64,000 nt of DNA from a virus, in the IMG/VR virus record IMGVR_UViG_3300045988_020586; one strand, 5' to 3'. This document shows positions 1,559-34,795 of the stretch, one piece after another (position 1 is the stretch's first letter; each line of letters starts with the position of its first letter). Both the position numbers and the translations under genes were made by a program. The notes beneath the pieces were generated by a model. It did not search any database. It saw only the letters and a list, made by a program, of their open reading frames with translations, and was not told the origin of the DNA.

Positions 1559-1767
1559 GACCCCGTCGGGTCTGCATGACATACACGATATGTGCGGACG
1601 CTGATTGATGTTTTACGTCTTTCGGTACCTTTCTCGCTGCCACATATCAGTACCACATGTTGTCCCTAGTGAGGGTTTGCACCTCGCAGTCATATCCTTT
1701 CGGAGCACACTAGGGTGACCAGTGGTGTCCTGGTCTATTCCATTAACAGTAGGGAAGTTCGTATAAT
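1559..1767. ncRNA. ORF-free structured spacer between CDS 1768..2430 and the tRNA
   Basis: No ORF. Nested complementarity: CCCTAGTG (1664-1671) with CACTAGGG (1708-1715), GACCAG-TGGTGTC-CTGGTC, GTCTGCA/TGCGGAC. Confidence 0.3.
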
Positions 1768-3562: not shown

Positions 3563-4111
3563 TTAAACTGCGAGATCCATCTCGAACTTATCTGCAATAG
3601 TATCCTTAATCTCAATAGAAGTCTCATTGTTAAACTTCTCGAGATTGGCGTCAAACTTATTTGCTAGTAGCTGCTGCTCGTGAATAAGCTGTGCAATCTT
3701 AGCTGATGAGAACACCTCACGCTTAGGCATAGCCTTCAATCCCTTCTTTGCCTTAGTTGATGGATCAAGTGTCTTGATCATCTTGAGCTGAGCTATAGCC
3801 TCCTTTGCCTCACATGCTGCAAAAATGCTATAGTTATTTGTCTTCTTAAAATCCTCATAAGAGAATGTAGTAGTACCTGTGTTAAGAGCTACCAAAATAC
3901 CCTTAATCATAATACGCTTCTCACTAAGCTGTACAATCTGATTATACAAACTCTTGAGATCTAAGCCAGAACCCTGCTTTGCTGCAATTGCCTTCTTAGA
4001 CATCAGGTTCTCTGCTCGAATGATTCGCCAATACTTATTGATAGTAATATCAATGTTCTTGCGAATTGTAATAATGTTTGCTGAGTTCAATTTAATTGAT
4101 TTCTTATTCAT
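3563..4111 (-). CDS. hypothetical protein (182 aa)
   Basis: ORF track; ATG start; TAA stop; co-directional with neighbours. Confidence 0.7.
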   Translation of the reverse strand: MNKKSIKLNSANIITIRKNIDITINKYWRIIRAENLMSKKAIAAKQGSGLDLKSLYNQIVQLSEKRIMIKGILVALNTGTTTFSYEDFKKTNNYSIFAACEAKEAIAQLKMIKTLDPSTKAKKGLKAMPKREVFSSAKIAQLIHEQQLLANKFDANLEKFNNETSIEIKDTIADKFEMDLAV

Positions 4112-12180: not shown

Positions 12181-12798
12181 ATGGAACAGATAAAGAAATA
12201 TATGCAAAACAGAAAGTTAATAACTTTCGTTTGTGATTGTTGTGGAAAAGAAGCTCAAAAACCTCTTTCCGAATACAACAGAAACAAGAAACTTGGTAGG
12301 AAGAATTTTTGTAGTAGAAGTTGTGCAATTCGTTATGCTAATAAAAATAAATTACATACATTTACAGATAAATGTAGAGAACATCTTTTAAGTATTTGCA
12401 ACAATCAAATAGACGAATATACCGATTTTAGATATATCCTTAGAAGTGTCTATAAAAGATTTAAAGAAGTAGATATAGATTTAGAGTATCTAAAACAACT
12501 TTGGGAGACACAAAAAGGAATTTGCCCTTATACTGGTATAAAATTAAAGCTTCCAACATATAAAAGCCATAACTTCTATTTTGATTGTGCATCTTTAGAC
12601 AGAATAGATTCTTCTAAAGGCTACGTTAAAGGAAATGTTCAATTCATATCATTACCTATAAATTATATGAAATCTACTAAATCAGATATTGAAATCAGAC
12701 AATTTCTTAAACAAATTTCTTCTTACACTTCACATTTCTGCGAAGATGAGACTATCTCTTCACCTAAAGAGGTGTTGGGCGCTCGAGCTGGTAATTAA
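12181..12798 (+). CDS. HNH-family homing endonuclease-like protein, free-standing and opposite to the surrounding operon
   Basis: First ATG inside track ORF 12145..12798 (which starts at TTG). N-terminal CxxC...C...C zinc-finger-like segment; C-terminal CPYTG...ASLDRIDSSKGYVKGNVQFISLPINYMK. Confidence 0.6.
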   Translation: MEQIKKYMQNRKLITFVCDCCGKEAQKPLSEYNRNKKLGRKNFCSRSCAIRYANKNKLHTFTDKCREHLLSICNNQIDEYTDFRYILRSVYKRFKEVDIDLEYLKQLWETQKGICPYTGIKLKLPTYKSHNFYFDCASLDRIDSSKGYVKGNVQFISLPINYMKSTKSDIEIRQFLKQISSYTSHFCEDETISSPKEVLGARAGN

Positions 12799-12832
12799 GA
12801 AGACTATACTTCTCCAGTAGTCGTTGCACTTT

Positions 12833-12850
12833 CTTGTGGTGTACCACAAG
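12833..12850 (+). terminator. Hairpin downstream of the HNH gene (weak terminator candidate)
   Basis: CTTGTGG-TGTA-CCACAAG, 7 bp, no U-tract. Confidence 0.25.
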
Positions 12851-13136
12851 CTTAGCTCAGGGTTAGCATGAACAATACTAGCTTTGAGCTATTATTGTTT
12901 TTAGCCTTCCTTGAATTCACCCAATATGGGCTCGGTAAGAACCCCTGTCCAAACAGATTATTTCATACACACTGTACATTTGTTTTGTAAATGTCCTGAT
13001 GATCAGTCAGAACATTTGATTTAAACCACTTTAGGTGCGTTCTAAGGCATTTTTGCGACACTTGTGGTTAATTACTCCACTCGGTGACATACTCTGCCTC
13101 AGAATGCATTAGAACATGGTTGAAAATATATAGGAA

Positions 13137-15468: not shown

Positions 15469-15542
15469 TGGACCAGCTAGGGTTTGAACCTAGGACCTCC
15501 AGATTATGAGTCTGTTGCTCTAACCGACTGAGCTACAAGTCC
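15469..15542 (-). tRNA. tRNA with anticodon CAT (Met, or Ile2 if lysidine-modified)
   Basis: Reverse complement: GGACTTG-TA-GCTC AGTCGGTTA GAGC-A-ACAGA CTCATAA TCTGG-AGGTC-CTAGG TTCAAAC CCTAG-CTGGTCC-A. One T.T mismatch in the acceptor stem. Confidence 0.8.
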
Positions 15543-15659
15543 AAATGGCAGTTTTTCGTCTTGTTTTTATCCCTTTCTTAGATACTGCCAAACTCTACCC
15601 AGGACGCTATAATGCGTGATTTTATGCAGACTTGAACTGCTATGTAGGCCTTTAACCTA

Positions 15660-15690
15660 ATAAATCTCGGGGACAGTATAAACTGCCCCC
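15660..15690 (-). terminator. Hairpin downstream of CDS 15702..15923
   Basis: Reverse strand GGGGCAGT-TTAT-ACTG(T)CCCC followed by GAGATTTATT. Confidence 0.45.
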
Positions 15691-15701
15691 TTGAAATGCA
15701 A

Positions 15702-19492: not shown

Positions 19493-19609
19493 TGAGGTCT
19501 ATTCGCGCTTTGAGTAATGAATCAGACTACACCATGATGCAACATGTGTAGTTTCGTCTAGGTCTCATCAGTGATGATTTTAGACTCTCCCTAGCTGAGT
19601 TTAAATAAA

Positions 19610-26250: not shown

Positions 26251-26574
26251 ATGAAGAAAGTTGTTAAAAAGACAGTTAAGGTAGCAAAGCCAAAGTACAC
26301 AATTTCTATGATTGATGCAGCTAATGTAAGTGATATTACAGCATACTTTATTGGCCAGAAGATTTTAAATGGCATGAAGCTCACTGATTCAGATATCAGT
26401 ACAATCGTATCAATTGTTACAGATATTGTACTTGAGGATCTTATGCCAGAGGATTGTGCAGCAATTGTAAACGATAATGGCACATACAGAAAGTGTACTG
26501 CTATTAGAGTTGAGAACAAGGTTAAGAAGCCTTGGTACAAGCGAGTATGGAATTGGATTACTCGTACTAAGTAA
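26251..26574 (+). CDS. hypothetical protein (107 aa)
   Basis: ORF track; ATG; TAA. Confidence 0.65.
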   Translation: MKKVVKKTVKVAKPKYTISMIDAANVSDITAYFIGQKILNGMKLTDSDISTIVSIVTDIVLEDLMPEDCAAIVNDNGTYRKCTAIRVENKVKKPWYKRVWNWITRTK

Positions 26575-26584
26575 TCACCTTTAG

Positions 26585-26658
26585 AGTCTATTAGTCAAAC
26601 GGTAAAGACAGCCCGATATAAAGGGAATAGTTAGCAGGTTCGACTCCTGCATAGACTC
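26585..26658 (+). tRNA. tRNA-like gene with aberrant anticodon arm (identity undetermined; possibly a pseudo-tRNA)
   Basis: Good acceptor AGTCTAT/ATAGACT, D arm GTC(A)..(A)GAC and T arm GCAGG-TTCGACT-CCTGC. The anticodon region gives only CCC/GGG with an 8-nt loop GATATAAA. Confidence 0.45.
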
Positions 26659-26689
26659 CGACTTTTTGAATTCATTTGTTATCATATAA

Positions 26690-27115
26690 AAAGAATTTAA
26701 GATTTATTTGAAATAGATTACGCCCGATTTTGTAATCTCGACCAGTTTGCTGGAATTAGTCGTTAAATATAGTAAACCAGCCGGTATTGCACCAGATGCC
26801 GTTATTTGTCTGGCGAAGACAAAGACACGAAGGAGGTCCAGCTTATTGGTGAGGCTAAACCAATCCCTTCCTGGTAGGGGTTAGATACCATTTGAGTGGC
26901 ATCCCTGTGTGTACACTATAAATAAAAGGCTTCCATTGTAAGCTGACACAGGGACCCAATACTGGTTCTGCGTAACTCCAGCTAAAGGTTACGTGCTTAT
27001 ATCGAATGGGGTGCAGGTGGCAATACCTCATTAGATATTTTCATCATAAAAATGAATTTATTTTAATAGGTCGCATGAGTTTTGCGAAATAGTTTTGTGT
27101 GTTTCTATAAAAAAT
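26690..27115 (+). ncRNA. ~0.4-kb structured RNA candidate between the two tRNA genes
   Basis: No ORF. Many helices, several with T.G pairs valid only in + sense: AGATTAC/GTAATCT, CGAC[CAG-TTTG-CTG]..GTCG, CGGTAT/ATGCCG, GTCT-GGCGA-AGAC, ATTGGT/ACCAAT, CCCTGTG/CACAGGG. Confidence 0.4.
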
Positions 27116-27124
27116 ACACAATAT

Positions 27125-27195
27125 CGCGGGATGGTGAAATGGTATCACGTGTGGCTCATAACCATAGATTGCTAGTTCGACTCTAGCTCCCGCAA
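27125..27195 (+). tRNA. tRNA with anticodon CAT (Met), with a C1.A72 mismatch
   Basis: CGCGGGA-TG-GTGA AATGGTA TCAC-G-TGTGG CTCATAA CCATA-GATT-GCTAG TTCGACT CTAGC-TCCCGCA-A. Confidence 0.75.
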
Positions 27196-27349
27196 CACTG
27201 AGCTTCGATTGTGTGGTGTTCTACATATTTGGCCACCAGGAGCGAAATTGATATCAGAAAAATATGTCGGCTACAATGGTTTAAAGTGTAGCAATGTAGT
27301 TTTAGGCAGATAAAAAGCTCGGTAGCCTAAGGTGAGCTTCTACAATATT
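27196..27349 (+). ncRNA. Structured spacer downstream of tRNA-Met
   Basis: AAGCTC-GGTAGCCTAAGGT-GAGCTT; CTACAT/ATGTAG long-range pair; shares the 11-mer GAGCTTCGATT with position 6967. Confidence 0.3.
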
Positions 27350-27387
27350 GCCCATTCGCGTACCAGCTAGCGCACCGGGCTCTTTTG
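27350..27387 (+). terminator. Candidate terminator of the tRNA/ncRNA cluster
   Basis: GCCC..GCG..CGC..GGGC interrupted hairpin followed by TCTTTTG. Confidence 0.35.
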
Positions 27388-27413
27388 TCCAATGAATAAT
27401 TGAATATATAATA

Positions 27414-28316
27414 ATGGAAAATAAAATATATAAACTCTCAGACGAACAGTTTGTTGAGTTACTCAAGAAAAGTTCAACAATATCTGAAGTGTTGTTTAAA
27501 CTTGGTTATACAGTTAAAGGAAACTCTTGGGGATATTCCCAAGTAAAAAGAAGAATGGATGATCTGAATTTAGACTATTCTATATTCAAAGGCAAATCAG
27601 CTGTTATAAAAACAACCAAGTTAAACAATGTAAAGAAGGAAGATATACTAAAGAAAAATTGTAGGCATCAGCGTACAGTACTAAGGAGATACGTTATTAA
27701 AAATAATTTAATCCCATACAAATGCGCGATATGCGGATGCACCGAATGGCAAGGAAAAACATTAAGCTTGGAACTTGATCATATAAATGGTGTAAACAAT
27801 GACAATAGATTAGAAAACCTTAGGTTTTTATGCCCTAATTGTCATAGTCAAACTTCAACGTATGGAAGCAGAAATCAGCAACTTAATAGTTCTGAATATG
27901 ATATCCCAGACGATTTAAGAAAGATGGTTGAAGAGAAGTATGATGAAGTTAAAAGTGTTAAAAGAGTATCATCAATACTTGGAATACGAAGATGCGTTGT
28001 TACAAAAATAGTTAATGAATCAGGTCAAAAACATTCTAATCAAAAGTATATAATAAGGTACGATAAAGATTGGAATGAGCTCGCAAGATACGGTTCTCTC
28101 GTAGAAGCTGCCAAAGCTTTAATAGAAGCTAATGAAGTTAAAACAAAGCGAGTAAAGACTTGTACTAGAACTATAATGTACAATAAAGATAATTTTTGGT
28201 TGAACAGTCATTGGAAAATATTGGATGGTAGCGGGATAATAAATAATCCGCTATTAGAACCTTCTCTAATTGACTCGGAAGACACTGTTGACGAGGCGCA
28301 AGCGAAAGCAGCGTGA
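27414..28316 (+). CDS. HNH homing endonuclease, free-standing
   Basis: 300 aa; CAICGCTEWQGKTLSLELDHINGVNNDNRLENLRFLCPNCH; no internal TAG; TGA stop. Confidence 0.8.
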   Translation: MENKIYKLSDEQFVELLKKSSTISEVLFKLGYTVKGNSWGYSQVKRRMDDLNLDYSIFKGKSAVIKTTKLNNVKKEDILKKNCRHQRTVLRRYVIKNNLIPYKCAICGCTEWQGKTLSLELDHINGVNNDNRLENLRFLCPNCHSQTSTYGSRNQQLNSSEYDIPDDLRKMVEEKYDEVKSVKRVSSILGIRRCVVTKIVNESGQKHSNQKYIIRYDKDWNELARYGSLVEAAKALIEANEVKTKRVKTCTRTIMYNKDNFWLNSHWKILDGSGIINNPLLEPSLIDSEDTVDEAQAKAA

Positions 28317-28433
28317 CAGACTAAACGAGAAGGCTGACCTTAGGGTTGGATGCAATAGTCGAGCTAATGAACCCCGGGGGAGTGGGGGCAGCACCTACAT
28401 GGGCGACAATAATTAAACAATATTATAAATACT

Positions 28434-29908
28434 ATGGAGTTAAAATTTAAGAGACTTGAGGACGAAGCGGTCCTCCCTATTCGTAGCACAGAAGGTGCTG
28501 CAGGAATTGATTTGACATGCATTAAGATTGATACAGCTCTTAATGAAGCAAATCAGCTAATGTTGGTTTACCATACAGGATTGGCAGTTGAGATTCCTGC
28601 CGGATATGTTGGTTTACTTATACCACGCTCTAGTATTTGGAAGAAATCATTATGGCTTACTGATAATGTTGGAGTGATTGACGCTAGAATATTGATACGT
28701 TATTGAGTATCAATGCAACCAACTCTATTCGCATATCGTTATGATGATATAACTAAACACAAAATATCATGATAACAAAAATTTGCAAACAATGTGGTAA
28801 GGAATTTGATGTACCAGAATACAGAAAGGATGCTAAATACTGCTGTGACGAATGTAAACACAAAGCACTGCATGGAGATTTAAATTGTGAGTGTGAGGTT
28901 TGTGGCAAGAAATTCCACTTAAAACCATACGCTCTTAAAAAGAGTAAACATCATACATGTAGCCGCGAGTGTTTAAACAAACTTAAAAGTACATTATATA
29001 AAGGTGAAGGAAATCATCAATATGGTCTAAAAGGCGATAAGAATTCATCTTTCAAAGGAAACGTAATCCTGCGTAAGAACAATGGACTAATCGAGAGAAT
29101 GATCTACAATCCTAGACACCCATACGCTGATCGTAATGGTAGGATTAAGGAACACAGATTAATAGTTGAGCAGAATTACAAAATGTTTGACGATAAATAC
29201 TTTGAAGTTATAAACGGAGAGCATTATTTAAAGAAGAATGTAGATGTACATCACATTAACTTTAATCATAACGATAATAGAATAGAAAACCTAATTCCCT
29301 TGACTAGAGCGGAACATACAAAGCTTCATAACCAAAATGAAGTTATATACAGAAATGAGAAGGGAATGATAATTGGTGTCTTAAAACAGGGTGAATTGCT
29401 GGAAAAGCCTGAAGAGGTCAATCAGCAGCCAAGCTTGGGTAGTGATACCCTTGAAGGTTCAGAGACTAACAGCCGAGTCTTACGAGACAGTAATGCTGAC
29501 ACGAGTGCCCTGCCCGGAAACGGTGAAGATATAGTCCGATCTACTGATAACAAAATAAACAGTAGAAATATAGAGATAAAGAGCTCTATAGATTAACAAC
29601 TCCTAATTTTGTTGGATTATAGAGGAGAGATTATAGCTATAATGAAAGCCACAACAGATGTGGTTCCTGCTATTTATAAGCAGGGCGAGCGCTTCTGTCA
29701 GTTGGTCATAGTTCCGGTGCCAGAATACGAGGTTACAGAAGTGTCTGAGCTTTCTGATACAAAACGAGGCGAGAATGGCTTTGGTTCAACTGGTACCGAT
29801 AATAAGGAAGTTAGCGCAGCTGCGGGAACTGAGGCACAGGCTAGCGAACAGCCACAGTCCGTACCAGAGCAAGCGGCGGCACAAGATGGTGCTGAGGTAG
29901 GTGAGTGA
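28434..29908 (+). CDS. dut: dUTPase, split gene: join(28434..28685, 29615..29908)
   Basis: Exon 1 ends ...NVGVIDA and exon 2 starts DYRGEIIAIM..., so joining restores the GVID.DYRGE motif. Other motifs: AAGIDL, IPRSS, KRGENGFGSTG. Confidence 0.8.
28686..29614 (+). mobile_element. Group I-like intron in dUTPase carrying an HNH ORF
   Basis: The junction is set by the protein motif. The 5' exon ends in T (28685) and the intron ends in G (29614), as expected for group I. Local helix ATTGATAC-GTTATTGA-GTATCAAT near the 5' end. Confidence 0.65.
28769..29596 (+). CDS. Intron-encoded HNH homing endonuclease
   Basis: 275 aa; N-terminal Cys clusters; VDVHHINFNHNDNRIENLIPLTRAEHTKLH; no internal TAG; TAA stop. 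Confidence 0.8.
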   Translation: MITKICKQCGKEFDVPEYRKDAKYCCDECKHKALHGDLNCECEVCGKKFHLKPYALKKSKHHTCSRECLNKLKSTLYKGEGNHQYGLKGDKNSSFKGNVILRKNNGLIERMIYNPRHPYADRNGRIKEHRLIVEQNYKMFDDKYFEVINGEHYLKKNVDVHHINFNHNDNRIENLIPLTRAEHTKLHNQNEVIYRNEKGMIIGVLKQGELLEKPEEVNQQPSLGSDTLEGSETNSRVLRDSNADTSALPGNGEDIVRSTDNKINSRNIEIKSSID

Positions 29909-34341: not shown

Positions 34342-34795
34342 TGAAGAATTGCCAAATACAAAGTATACTGCTAATGTGAAAAAGAACGAAGATGGCAGCT
34401 ATACAGCTAGCTTAGATATTTAGAAGTAGAGCGATTATAAAGACTATGTGAATAAGAATGGATTACATTTTACAAAGTCATTACAAGAATACGCTAGCAA
34501 ACAGATGGTTAATTCAAATGGATTAGAACATACATGGACTCCAGAATAGGTTCAAAATGTATGCAATGTTCTCAATCTAAAGATACCAAGCACATCAACA
34601 ATATATGATGTTACATATACAGCAAACATGGCTTATGCTGATTTCTATCCAGAGTTGCTTACTGAGCACGAGTGTGTTAAGTATGCAATGGCAGTTGCAA
34701 ACGACGAAGATGGATACGAAGGAATATAGTTTTGTAGATGGATTGCTGATGTAATAGCAAAGAAAGAAAATATAGATTGGGAGAAATTTAAGTAA
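34310..34795 (+). CDS. hypothetical protein (161 aa; 4 in-frame TAG)
   Basis: Own translation MDKVIVIRHSDEELPNTKY...IDWEKFK; overlaps the previous gene by 32 nt; TAA stop. Confidence 0.55.

Follow-up and report, generated by a model that had tools for sequence, protein, structure and literature searches.

Phage T4 makes two stable non-tRNA RNAs, species 1 and 2, from its tRNA cluster, and homing-endonuclease cassettes, such as T4 SegB, are known in phage tRNA clusters. In recoded gut phages, theta ribozymes adjoin tRNA-Met and suppressor tRNAs (PMC10879173), and for crAss-like phages a mismatch has been noted between recoding and an apparent lack of suppressor tRNA (PMC7886860). Here we analyze positions 26585-28406 of a 64,000-nucleotide (nt) stretch of viral DNA (IMG/VR record IMGVR_UViG_3300045988_020586; below, "the window" is this whole stretch, to which all positions refer), where RNA cassettes built on H-type pseudoknots stand between tRNA genes. 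Comparison with related loci indicates that this region is a mosaic tRNA array, not one large RNA.

Like the cassettes, T4 species 1 and 2 are small structured RNAs among phage tRNA genes, and they are co-transcribed and processed with the tRNAs. The cassettes differ in being interchangeable tandem H-type pseudoknots beside a suppressor tRNA, with a processing route that is predicted, and we know of no kinship in sequence or fold between the two. At the 3′ end of MALAT1 and MEN-beta, RNase P cuts at a tRNA-like structure (mascRNA) and a triple helix protects the new end. The array is similar in that, shortly before a tRNA-shaped RNase P site, it has a stable structure containing an A-rich strand, which might provide a protected 3′ end without a terminator; MALAT1, however, is eukaryotic and uses a U-A.U triple helix, whereas here an H-type pseudoknot would serve, both cleavage and protection being putative. 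Consecutive H-type pseudoknots directly 5′ of a tRNA-shaped element also occur in tobamovirus and tymovirus 3′ untranslated regions (UTRs), but those are plant RNA virus UTRs for translation and replication, whereas the pseudoknots here precede real tRNA genes of a DNA phage.

Organization of the tRNA array

We assign the window to a crAss-like gut phage that is kin to Burzaovirus, two RefSeq matches being the crAss-like phages cr124_1 and cr7_1 (Crassvirales, Suoliviridae, Burzaovirus). Both have a small gene homologous to window 26251-26574, then a gap without annotation, a tRNA with anticodon CUA that is annotated as Gln, and dUTPase. This frame recurs in the window, where the gap between the small gene and the tRNA is far longer. 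The modules were first defined by alignment of the window with cr124_1 and cr7_1 and then with 20 IMG/VR loci, and a pattern scan of metagenomes enlarged the set to 139 loci containing T, the tRNA-like gene that opens the array. In the window, the order is T, cassette X, cassette A, spacer Y, tRNA-Met, cassette Z and amber-suppressor tRNA(CUA), with the following features:

26585..26658, + strand: T, tRNA-like gene; Rfam tRNA (RF00005) at 37.9 bits against a cut-off of 29; opens every array
26659..26714, + strand: AT-rich spacer; varies in length and sequence between relatives; part of it recurs at 27039-27069 as direct repeats D7 and D9
26715..26890, + strand: cassette X (~176 nt); in 23 of 139 loci, 13 distinct sequences, nearly invariant
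26895..26954, + strand: pseudoknot a (PK-a) of cassette A; alignment A5 (42 sequences)
26956..26995, + strand: linker and pseudoknot b (PK-b) of cassette A; 62 distinct PK-b copies, alignment A4 (42 distinct sequences)
26996..27124, + strand: spacer Y; in a minority of arrays, e.g., L011 and L022
27125..27196 (end 27195/6), + strand: tRNA-Met (CAU); called by ARAGORN, Rfam 57.8 bits
27196..27348, + strand: cassette Z; 14 distinct copies in 29 loci
27349..27383, + strand: tRNA(CUA) 5′ half, with acceptor, D arm, anticodon stem and loop to U35; sequence UGCCCAUUCGCGUACCAGCUAGCGCACCGGGCUCU
27384..28369, + strand: 986-nt insert interrupting the anticodon loop; contains the HNH open reading frame (ORF) 27414-28316
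28370..28406, + strand: tRNA(CUA) 3′ half, with A36, the 3′ strand of the anticodon stem, T arm, acceptor 3′ strand and discriminator; sequence AACCCCGGGGGAGUGGGGGCAGCACCUACAUGGGCGA

The 114 complete arrays comprise 100 distinct sequences and about 50 architectures. Common to all of them are T, one or more tRNAs and at least one unit with PK-b at its end, and an identifiable tRNA(CUA) closes 85 of the 100 distinct arrays. While T is always present, A occurs in most loci, X in a minority and Y in few; relatives add a cassette B (130-200 nt) and a short A′ form, with one to three units per array, and some have T and A directly followed by the suppressor tRNA, without X. Even near-identical phages differ by the shuffling, duplication or loss of cassettes, a behaviour much like that of tRNA genes within an array. 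Units abut without a spacer (the gap between X and A in the window is 4 nt), and where a tRNA follows PK-b, the distance to its +1 base is a constant 5 nt (..GUUACGYG CUUAU, then the tRNA). The element after PK-b varies and may be the suppressor, tRNA-Met, an odd tRNA, tRNA-Ile, another cassette or spacer Y. An H-type pseudoknot lies near each end of X, A and Z; as read here, the window has six pseudoknots in ~650 nt of non-tRNA sequence, the two of A strongly supported and the four of X and Z lightly. A looser pattern, AATACTGG..CCAG.TAAA, retrieved mostly chance matches in viral contigs and was dropped.

The first-pass annotation, made from the letters of the window, had described a tRNA-like gene at 26585-26658 and a tRNA-Met at 27125-27195 flanking one structured RNA of ~0.4 kb and unknown class, and had noted that large ornate RNAs such as GOLLD and ROOL are known beside tRNAs in phages and prophages. 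Both genes were recovered, the former by its Rfam tRNA score of 37.9 bits and the latter by ARAGORN and Rfam, and the 466 nt between them indeed hold no ORF longer than 58 amino acids (aa). Dense nested helices had been reported there; the stretch does fold better than shuffled sequence (minimum free energy (MFE) z-score -3.5), and the units are pseudoknots and not simply nested helices. Since the reverse strand folds as stably (z-score -3.6), MFE alone does not give the strand and is of little weight by itself.

Rfam was searched at gathering thresholds over the whole window, at E<=10 over 26450-27500 and 27340-28440, and at E<=1 in seven relatives. A cmscan, the check that had been proposed, returned for 26450-27500 no family other than tRNA and noise, and the searches of the array and the seven relatives likewise gave only tRNAs and unrelated noise, including an echo of SBWMV1_UPD-PKh (16 bits, E=6.5). 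We conclude from these searches that the cassettes are an uncatalogued RNA family.

The proposal of a single large RNA, a new class comparable to GOLLD and ROOL, draws on the absence of an ORF, the many helices and the proximity of X and A, which, 4 nt apart, could fold or act together where both occur. However, 116 of the 139 loci keep A without X, relatives carrying A (~110 nt) in the absence of X (~175 nt); A and B occur alone or in other orders, and no covarying long-range helix between X and A was found. GOLLD (RF01998) and ROOL (RF03087) gave no match at E<=10 in the window and none at E<=1 in four relatives. They resemble the cassettes as structured phage RNAs of unstated function that often lie near tRNAs, but they are single RNAs of 500-800 nt, whereas the cassettes are modules of 100-200 nt; instead of one unit of >500 nt, we find separate modules that vary in order and number. 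A single RNA is thus very unlikely. Of the earlier description, the structured, noncoding nature of the stretch and its lack of an Rfam family hold, and its unity does not: it consists of a spacer, two separable cassettes and a second spacer.

The pseudoknots of cassette A and its relatives

In PK-a, stem S1a is formed by AGUGGCA (26895-26901) and UGU-A-CACU (26910-26917), and the 8-nt loop of S1a, UCCCUGUG (26902-26909), pairs with CACAGGGA (26947-26954), 38 nt downstream, to form stem S2a. The connecting strand begins with AUAAAUAAAA, which is followed by hairpin H2 (26928-26944). In alignment A5, 94.6% of the cells are paired overall (S1a 99.0%, S2a 99.1%), and none of 500 shuffles was as good. 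Pair 7-16, the innermost of S1a, is A-U in 39 sequences, G-C in 3 and C-G in A′ units, while pair 11-57 is C-G in 30 and A-U in 10. The S2a duplexes of other types are GCCUG/CGGGC, GCUGAU/AUUAGC and GCCCGGUG/CAUCGGGC.

The linker CCAAUA (26956-26961), conserved across A, A′ and B, leads to PK-b, whose consecutive parts are CUGG (26962-26965), UU, CUGCGUAAC(U) (26968-26977), CCAG (26978-26981), CUAAAG and GUUACGUG (26988-26995). The gap-free alignment A4 has 97.8% of its cells paired, and changes on both sides affect four pairs and 20 cells; no shuffle out of 500 reached the observed value, and slid controls pair at 11-47%. In one type, stem 1 reads CUAG/CUAG instead of CUGG/CCAG, and stem 2 comes as at least six different duplexes, among them UUAUAAG/CUUAUAA, UGUACAAC/GUUGUACA, UGUAUA/UAUACA and UACGU/ACGUA.

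Cassette B follows the plan AGAGGU - CGCCAUUU - AUCUCU - AUAAAC .. AAAUGGCG - CCAAUA - PK-b, and a 152-nt mini-B form in locus L013 has the second duplex replaced by CUCACC/GGUGAG. Both share with A the plan a-b-a′-AUAAA..-b′-CCAAUA-PK-b. The inspection of homologous loci that the first-pass annotation had suggested has in this way yielded compensatory changes in the helices of the A/B family, drawn from 139 loci. Many of the kept pairs in A and X are G.U, which in the other strand would give C.A; since such pairs work in one sense only, the RNA is read as + sense. We conclude from the pattern of substitutions that both pseudoknots of A are under selection for their fold.

PK-b shares with the preQ1-I riboswitch its a-b-a′-b′ topology, a short U-rich loop 1 and an A-rich loop 3, and by eye it is like the Thermoanaerobacter aptamer. 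It differs in that no regulated ORF follows, the next element being a tRNA or another cassette. This candidate was rejected: RF00522 was not matched at E<=10, and the 8-9 covarying base pairs (bp) of stem 2 leave PK-b a loop 2 of 0-1 nt and hence no ligand pocket, whereas in preQ1-I that loop holds the ligand-pairing C. We also dropped the notion of a leader word CAAUA shared by PK-b and tRNAs, the leaders being merely AU-rich and ending in AU.

In most relatives (e.g., positions 150-170 of the L001 extract), the region of the H2 loop contains a perfect palindrome, UACCAUGGUA, which could mediate RNA-RNA dimerization. The copy in the window, UUCCAUUGUA, is not palindromic, and its stem is one pair longer.

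Cassettes X and Z and the spacers

The 5′ part of cassette X consists of hairpin h1 (26715-26738) and pseudoknot PK-x1, in which CGAC (26739-26742) pairs with GUCG (26759-26762) and GCUGG (26749-26753) with CCAGC (26777-26781), the third loop being UUAAAUAUAGUAAA. Three hairpins follow in the middle (26782-26801, 26805-26823 and 26839-26857), where the inner fold is resolved in part, and the 3′ end is made up of CCAAU (26860-26864) and PK-x2 (CCCU/AGGG with UGGU/ACCA, 26865-26890). Compensatory change is seen in PK-x1 (GCUGG/CCAGC to GCUGA/UCAGC), changes in the hairpin YAGCU/RGCUA gain pairs, and the 3′ strand ACCA of PK-x2 becomes ACUA or AUCA and is still paired through G.U. The first-pass annotation had pointed to T.G pairs that work in the forward sense only, for example in CGGTAT/ATGCCG. 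This point is well taken: the helix CGGUAU/AUGCCG (26782-26801), with its U.G, appears in relatives as CGGCAU/AUGCCG or CGGCAU/AUGUCG, wobble swaps that stay paired in the + sense only.

The structured spacer of ~150 nt that had been noticed after tRNA-Met corresponds to cassette Z, kept in 29 loci. Its PK-z1 pairs UGGUG (27214-27218) with CACCA (27234-27238) and ACAUAUUU (27223-27230) with AAAUAUGU (27260-27267). A hairpin GCUACA/UGUAGC (27270-27292) occupies the middle, and PK-z2 (UAGGC/GCCUA with AAGCUC/GAGCUU, 27303-27339) ends 9 nt before the suppressor tRNA. Compensatory changes are ACAUACUU/AAGUAUGU in one variant of PK-z1 and UAUGC/GCAUA in PK-z2; CACCA changes to CAUCA or CACUA with G.U pairing kept.

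Spacer Y contains hairpin Y1, AAUGGGGU/ACCUCAUU (27005-27032), then AGAUAUUUU, the AT-rich repeat (27039-27069) and hairpins at 27071-27087 and 27095-27121, the last one ending 3 nt before tRNA-Met. By scan, the hairpin at 27071-27087 is terminator-like, and we infer for Y a putative role as terminator or promoter. A search of the AT-rich spacers for promoters of the sigma-70 or Bacteroides type gave nothing convincing.

The tRNA-like gene T and an interrupted amber-suppressor tRNA

The acceptor, D and T arms of T are canonical, and its covariance-model score is that of a tRNA. In place of a 5-bp anticodon stem and a 7-nt loop with U33 and a readable anticodon, it has a 3-bp stem, CCC/GGG, and an 8-nt loop, GAUAUAAA (GAUAYAAA across copies). 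ARAGORN makes no call on T in the window, and overall either none or one of undetermined type. The arms are almost invariant in 136 copies (21 variants), variation being found at positions 26-27 and at one loop base (U/C).

The terminator-like hairpin that the first-pass annotation saw before the HNH gene turned out to be the 5′ half of a split tRNA(CUA), 27349-27383. When joined, the two halves give 72 nt whose MFE structure is a perfect cloverleaf (-29.3 kcal/mol) with the anticodon loop CUCUAAC and the anticodon CUA. The T loop, GGCAGCA, is non-canonical, and ARAGORN does not call the joined gene. The split gene takes the place that an intact tRNA(CUA) has in relatives, 12 distinct arrays carry this split allele, and in relative L007, acceptor changes (GGGCG to GGGUA) keep the pairing. 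The 64-kb window as a whole gives no call of an intact tRNA(CUA), and a complete relative genome with the split allele (102,162 bp, terminal repeats) has no other tRNA(CUA). We conclude from the modelled cloverleaf that the interrupted gene is an amber-suppressor tRNA(CUA).

The genes downstream bear on the need for such a tRNA. With TAG read as an amino acid, the ORFs on the + strand at 28400-64000 total 12359 aa instead of 5205, and the longest grows from 393 to 1187 aa; reading TGA as tryptophan brings little gain. Since the ORFs of this arm are long only with TAG recoded, the array at 26585-28406 would head a recoded (TAG=Gln) late arm.

The HNH identity of ORF 27414-28316 is supported by PF01844 (23.1 bits, cut-off 21.4); the gene is not free-standing, as had been thought, but lies inside the 986-nt insert. 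The insert resembles group I introns of bacterial tRNA anticodon loops in its position, in bearing an endonuclease and in its boundaries, with a U closing the 5′ exon and a G as its own last base. P7/P3/P8-like words are present, and the last ~100 nt contain the group-I-like words CAGACUA ... AAUAGUC around a hairpin AAGG/CCUU. The insert differs from such introns in that Intron_gpI (RF00028) gave no match at E<=10 on 27340-28440 and no P1 of at least 5 bp was found at the splice site, and in that the gene it interrupts, an amber suppressor, has an unusual D/T-loop pair. The insert is probably removed from the RNA, since the late genes depend on TAG=Q.

A second, contiguous tRNA(CUA) allele, also missed by ARAGORN, is present in L003 (~3675-3750), with equivalents in L004, L008 and L013. 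Its D loop is ACCGCCUG and its T loop AUGGACA. A different HNH gene comes next, and after that a 3′ remnant of the canonical allele (..UAGUCUGGGUUCGAAUCCUAGUGGGGCGA), an arrangement that looks like an endonuclease cassette bringing its own tRNA. In both odd alleles the D loop contains CC and the T loop GG, which looks like a swapped D/T-loop elbow contact.

The locus is a hot spot for inserts. In L005, the tRNA-Met after PK-b seems to be split in its anticodon loop, between ..GGCUCAU and UAAAAUG.., by an ORF-bearing insert. Further, tRNA-shaped genes with 6-nt or 8-nt anticodon loops recur in many arrays between tRNA-Met and the suppressor (e.g., in the 1500-nt extracts, L011 937-1011, L012 296-370, L022 620-692 and L006 823-895); ARAGORN labels them tRNA-??? 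with (ca), (aa), (taaa), (tgaa), (acac) or (aagg). Possible identities are decoys, suppressors of the frameshift or ochre type, and pseudogenes.

The HNH inserts in tRNA(CUA), the insert in the L005 tRNA-Met, an intron in dUTPase and the ~50 architectures might suggest that the cassettes are non-functional debris, that is, decayed tRNA genes, introns and recombination scars in a homing-endonuclease hot spot. Against this, compensatory changes keep 95-99% of the pairs, the single-stranded motifs are conserved, and every array keeps at least one unit. We disfavour debris as an explanation and regard it as extremely improbable.

Ribozymes and other RNA families

Neither RNase P nor transfer-messenger RNA (tmRNA) was called in the window (ARAGORN, Rfam), in agreement with the first-pass annotation, which had found no hallmarks of either. 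For RNase P RNA, RF00010 and RF00011 gave no match at E<=10. The loose resemblance of GAAGGAGGTCCAGC to the P4 region did not survive the comparison, since the P4-like word lies in X, which most relatives lack, and no P4 partner is kept in relatives without X. Two words that by eye resemble the conserved regions forming the P4 helix of RNase P, GAAGGAGGUCCAGC (CR-I) and ACAGGGACCCAAUA (CR-V), were dropped because many relatives do without X and because GGGAC belongs to the covarying S2a. Phage cr124_1 does have a tmRNA, 13 kb away and on the other strand.

The cassettes might instead be undescribed self-cleaving ribozymes that trim the tRNA precursor, as theta ribozymes do. Theta ribozymes are likewise small pseudoknotted RNAs beside tRNA-Met and suppressor tRNAs in UAG-reassigning gut phages (PMC10879173), pseudoknots are common in small ribozymes, and this genome has other catalytic RNAs (a RAGATH-1 hammerhead and group I introns). 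However, theta ribozymes sit immediately 3′ of the tRNA, whereas the modules sit 5′ of it, and the nested P1/P2/P3/P1.1 with a catalytic C was not found in the cassettes: PK-a lacks P3/L3, and the pseudoknots are independent tandem H-types with no nested core of the hepatitis delta virus (HDV) kind. A descriptor scan for HDV-like and theta ribozymes on both strands of 26551-27450 gave only AT-rich chance matches, none of them at a tRNA end and nothing credible at either tRNA border. No Rfam ribozyme family, the HDV families included, matched the array at E<=10. Ribozyme activity is therefore a decidedly unlikely explanation. Literature searches on crAss-like phages retrieved no description of pseudoknot RNAs at tRNAs or of such ribozymes.

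Possible roles of the cassettes

Our preferred reading, which we hold tentatively and with somewhat less than even confidence, is that the cassettes are stable, pseudoknot-capped RNAs cut out together with the tRNAs. They would be co-transcribed with the tRNAs in one precursor; cleavage by RNase P is predicted at the start of the following tRNA, which in relatives lies 5 nt beyond PK-b, and a 3′-end-processing enzyme would cut after the preceding tRNA or T. The freed RNAs may persist at ~100-200 nt, or ~280 nt for X plus A of the window, with the terminal pseudoknots acting as caps against exonucleases. As a guess, they might act in trans on the translation or tRNA machinery during the switch to UAG = glutamine, an action suggested because the cassettes constantly accompany tRNA-Met and the suppressor.

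Several points weigh against this. Co-transcription, cleavage sites and stability are all read from sequence; at unit-unit junctions there is no tRNA to guide cleavage; PK-b of the window precedes spacer Y, with no tRNA directly after it; and we know of no target or partner of the cassettes. The family was found only in one clade, Burzaovirus-like phages, and since its sequences are kin, the shuffle controls overstate significance. For X and Z, independent compensatory events are few and there is one contrary variant each: X variant L225 weakens the hairpin 26805-26823, and Z variant UGGCG breaks one pair.

A bolder version would have the cassettes, T and the split suppressor form an RNA-level device that runs the phage code switch, the cassettes being a new class of trans-acting RNA. 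They would bind a host component, e.g., release factor 1, RNase P or an aminoacyl-tRNA synthetase, so that UAG would be read as glutamine only once the late programme starts. We consider such a device unlikely.

Alternatively, the modules could be leaders acting in cis that either protect the tRNA precursor or govern in what order, how fast or when RNase P processes it. They would thereby control how much tRNA-Met is supplied, and how much of the amber suppressor, which opens the late TAG-recoded genes. The spacing agrees with this, a tRNA standing 5 nt after PK-b and 9 nt after PK-z2, as does the form Z2, whose terminal pseudoknot, read by eye, stops 5 nt short of the suppressor; arrays also mostly end in a suppressor tRNA (85 of 100 identifiable) at the code-switch boundary. 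Yet the element after PK-b varies and may be another cassette or spacer Y, copy number varies from one to three, and the conserved single-stranded words CCAAUA and AUAAAY are left unexplained. A leader role in cis is possible, if rather doubtful.

The cassettes could also be anti-defence decoys that mimic ToxI-like type III antitoxins or soak up tRNA-targeting nucleases. Phage TE escapes ToxIN by means of a pseudo-ToxI RNA, and phage tRNA arrays are thought to counter tRNA-cleaving defences. Head-to-tail pseudoknots, A-rich single-stranded motifs, variable copy number and fast turnover between near-identical phages are all consistent with decoys, and T and several neighbouring tRNAs with abnormal anticodon loops would suit this as well. 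Type III antitoxins, however, are identical repeats of ~36-45 nt, whereas the units are heterogeneous and 100-200 nt long, and we know of no toxin partner in the host. The decoy explanation seems improbable.

The array bears on how recoded gut phages time and enforce the UAG switch, since it stands exactly at that boundary. If the cassettes are stable trans-acting RNAs, as in our preferred reading, they are candidates for missing players in the code switch; as processing signals, they would represent a novel mode of tRNA operon organization. A split suppressor with a seemingly unusual elbow that ARAGORN misses shows how a recoded phage can seem suppressor-free. What is offered here is a plan of two pseudoknots shared by A, A′ and B, models of the pseudoknots in X and Z, the cassette census and the reading of the split tRNA(CUA); the cassette borders and pseudoknot models permit the building of an Rfam-style family.

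Other features of the locus and genome

A pattern scan of bacterial genomes retrieved seven stretches, six of which were chance matches outside the family. The seventh, L141 (JAJXAL010000002.1, 101,041 bp), carries a full-length array and belongs to a metagenome-assembled genome binned as Segatella copri. This ~101-kb contig is probably the phage genome itself, and the bin hints at the host, nothing firmer.

Other tRNAs of the window also have strongly structured, ORF-free leaders, at 15543-15700 (- strand) and 1559-1700 (- strand). In one of them, GGCAGU..ACUGCC ends 4 nt before the tRNA-Met at 15542, and a T-arm-like hairpin, GCAGUUCAAGUCUGC, is found among these leaders.

At gathering thresholds, Rfam identified group I introns in the genome. 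One of them, at 12728-13020 (- strand, 81 bits), lies ~13.5 kb upstream of T, at roughly the site of the tmRNA annotated in cr124_1 (34357-34713, minus strand, 13.0-13.3 kb before its T). The tmRNA gene of the window may have been interrupted or replaced at this site.

The RAGATH-1 hammerhead of the window lies at 19520-19601 (- strand, 71.9 bits). The loop of its 5′ hairpin, CUAGG, can pair with CCUAG at the place of stem II, which is followed by CUAAAAU, giving it an H-type flavour. Considered as a relative of the cassettes, it proved to be a different RNA, whose loop pairs into the hammerhead core.

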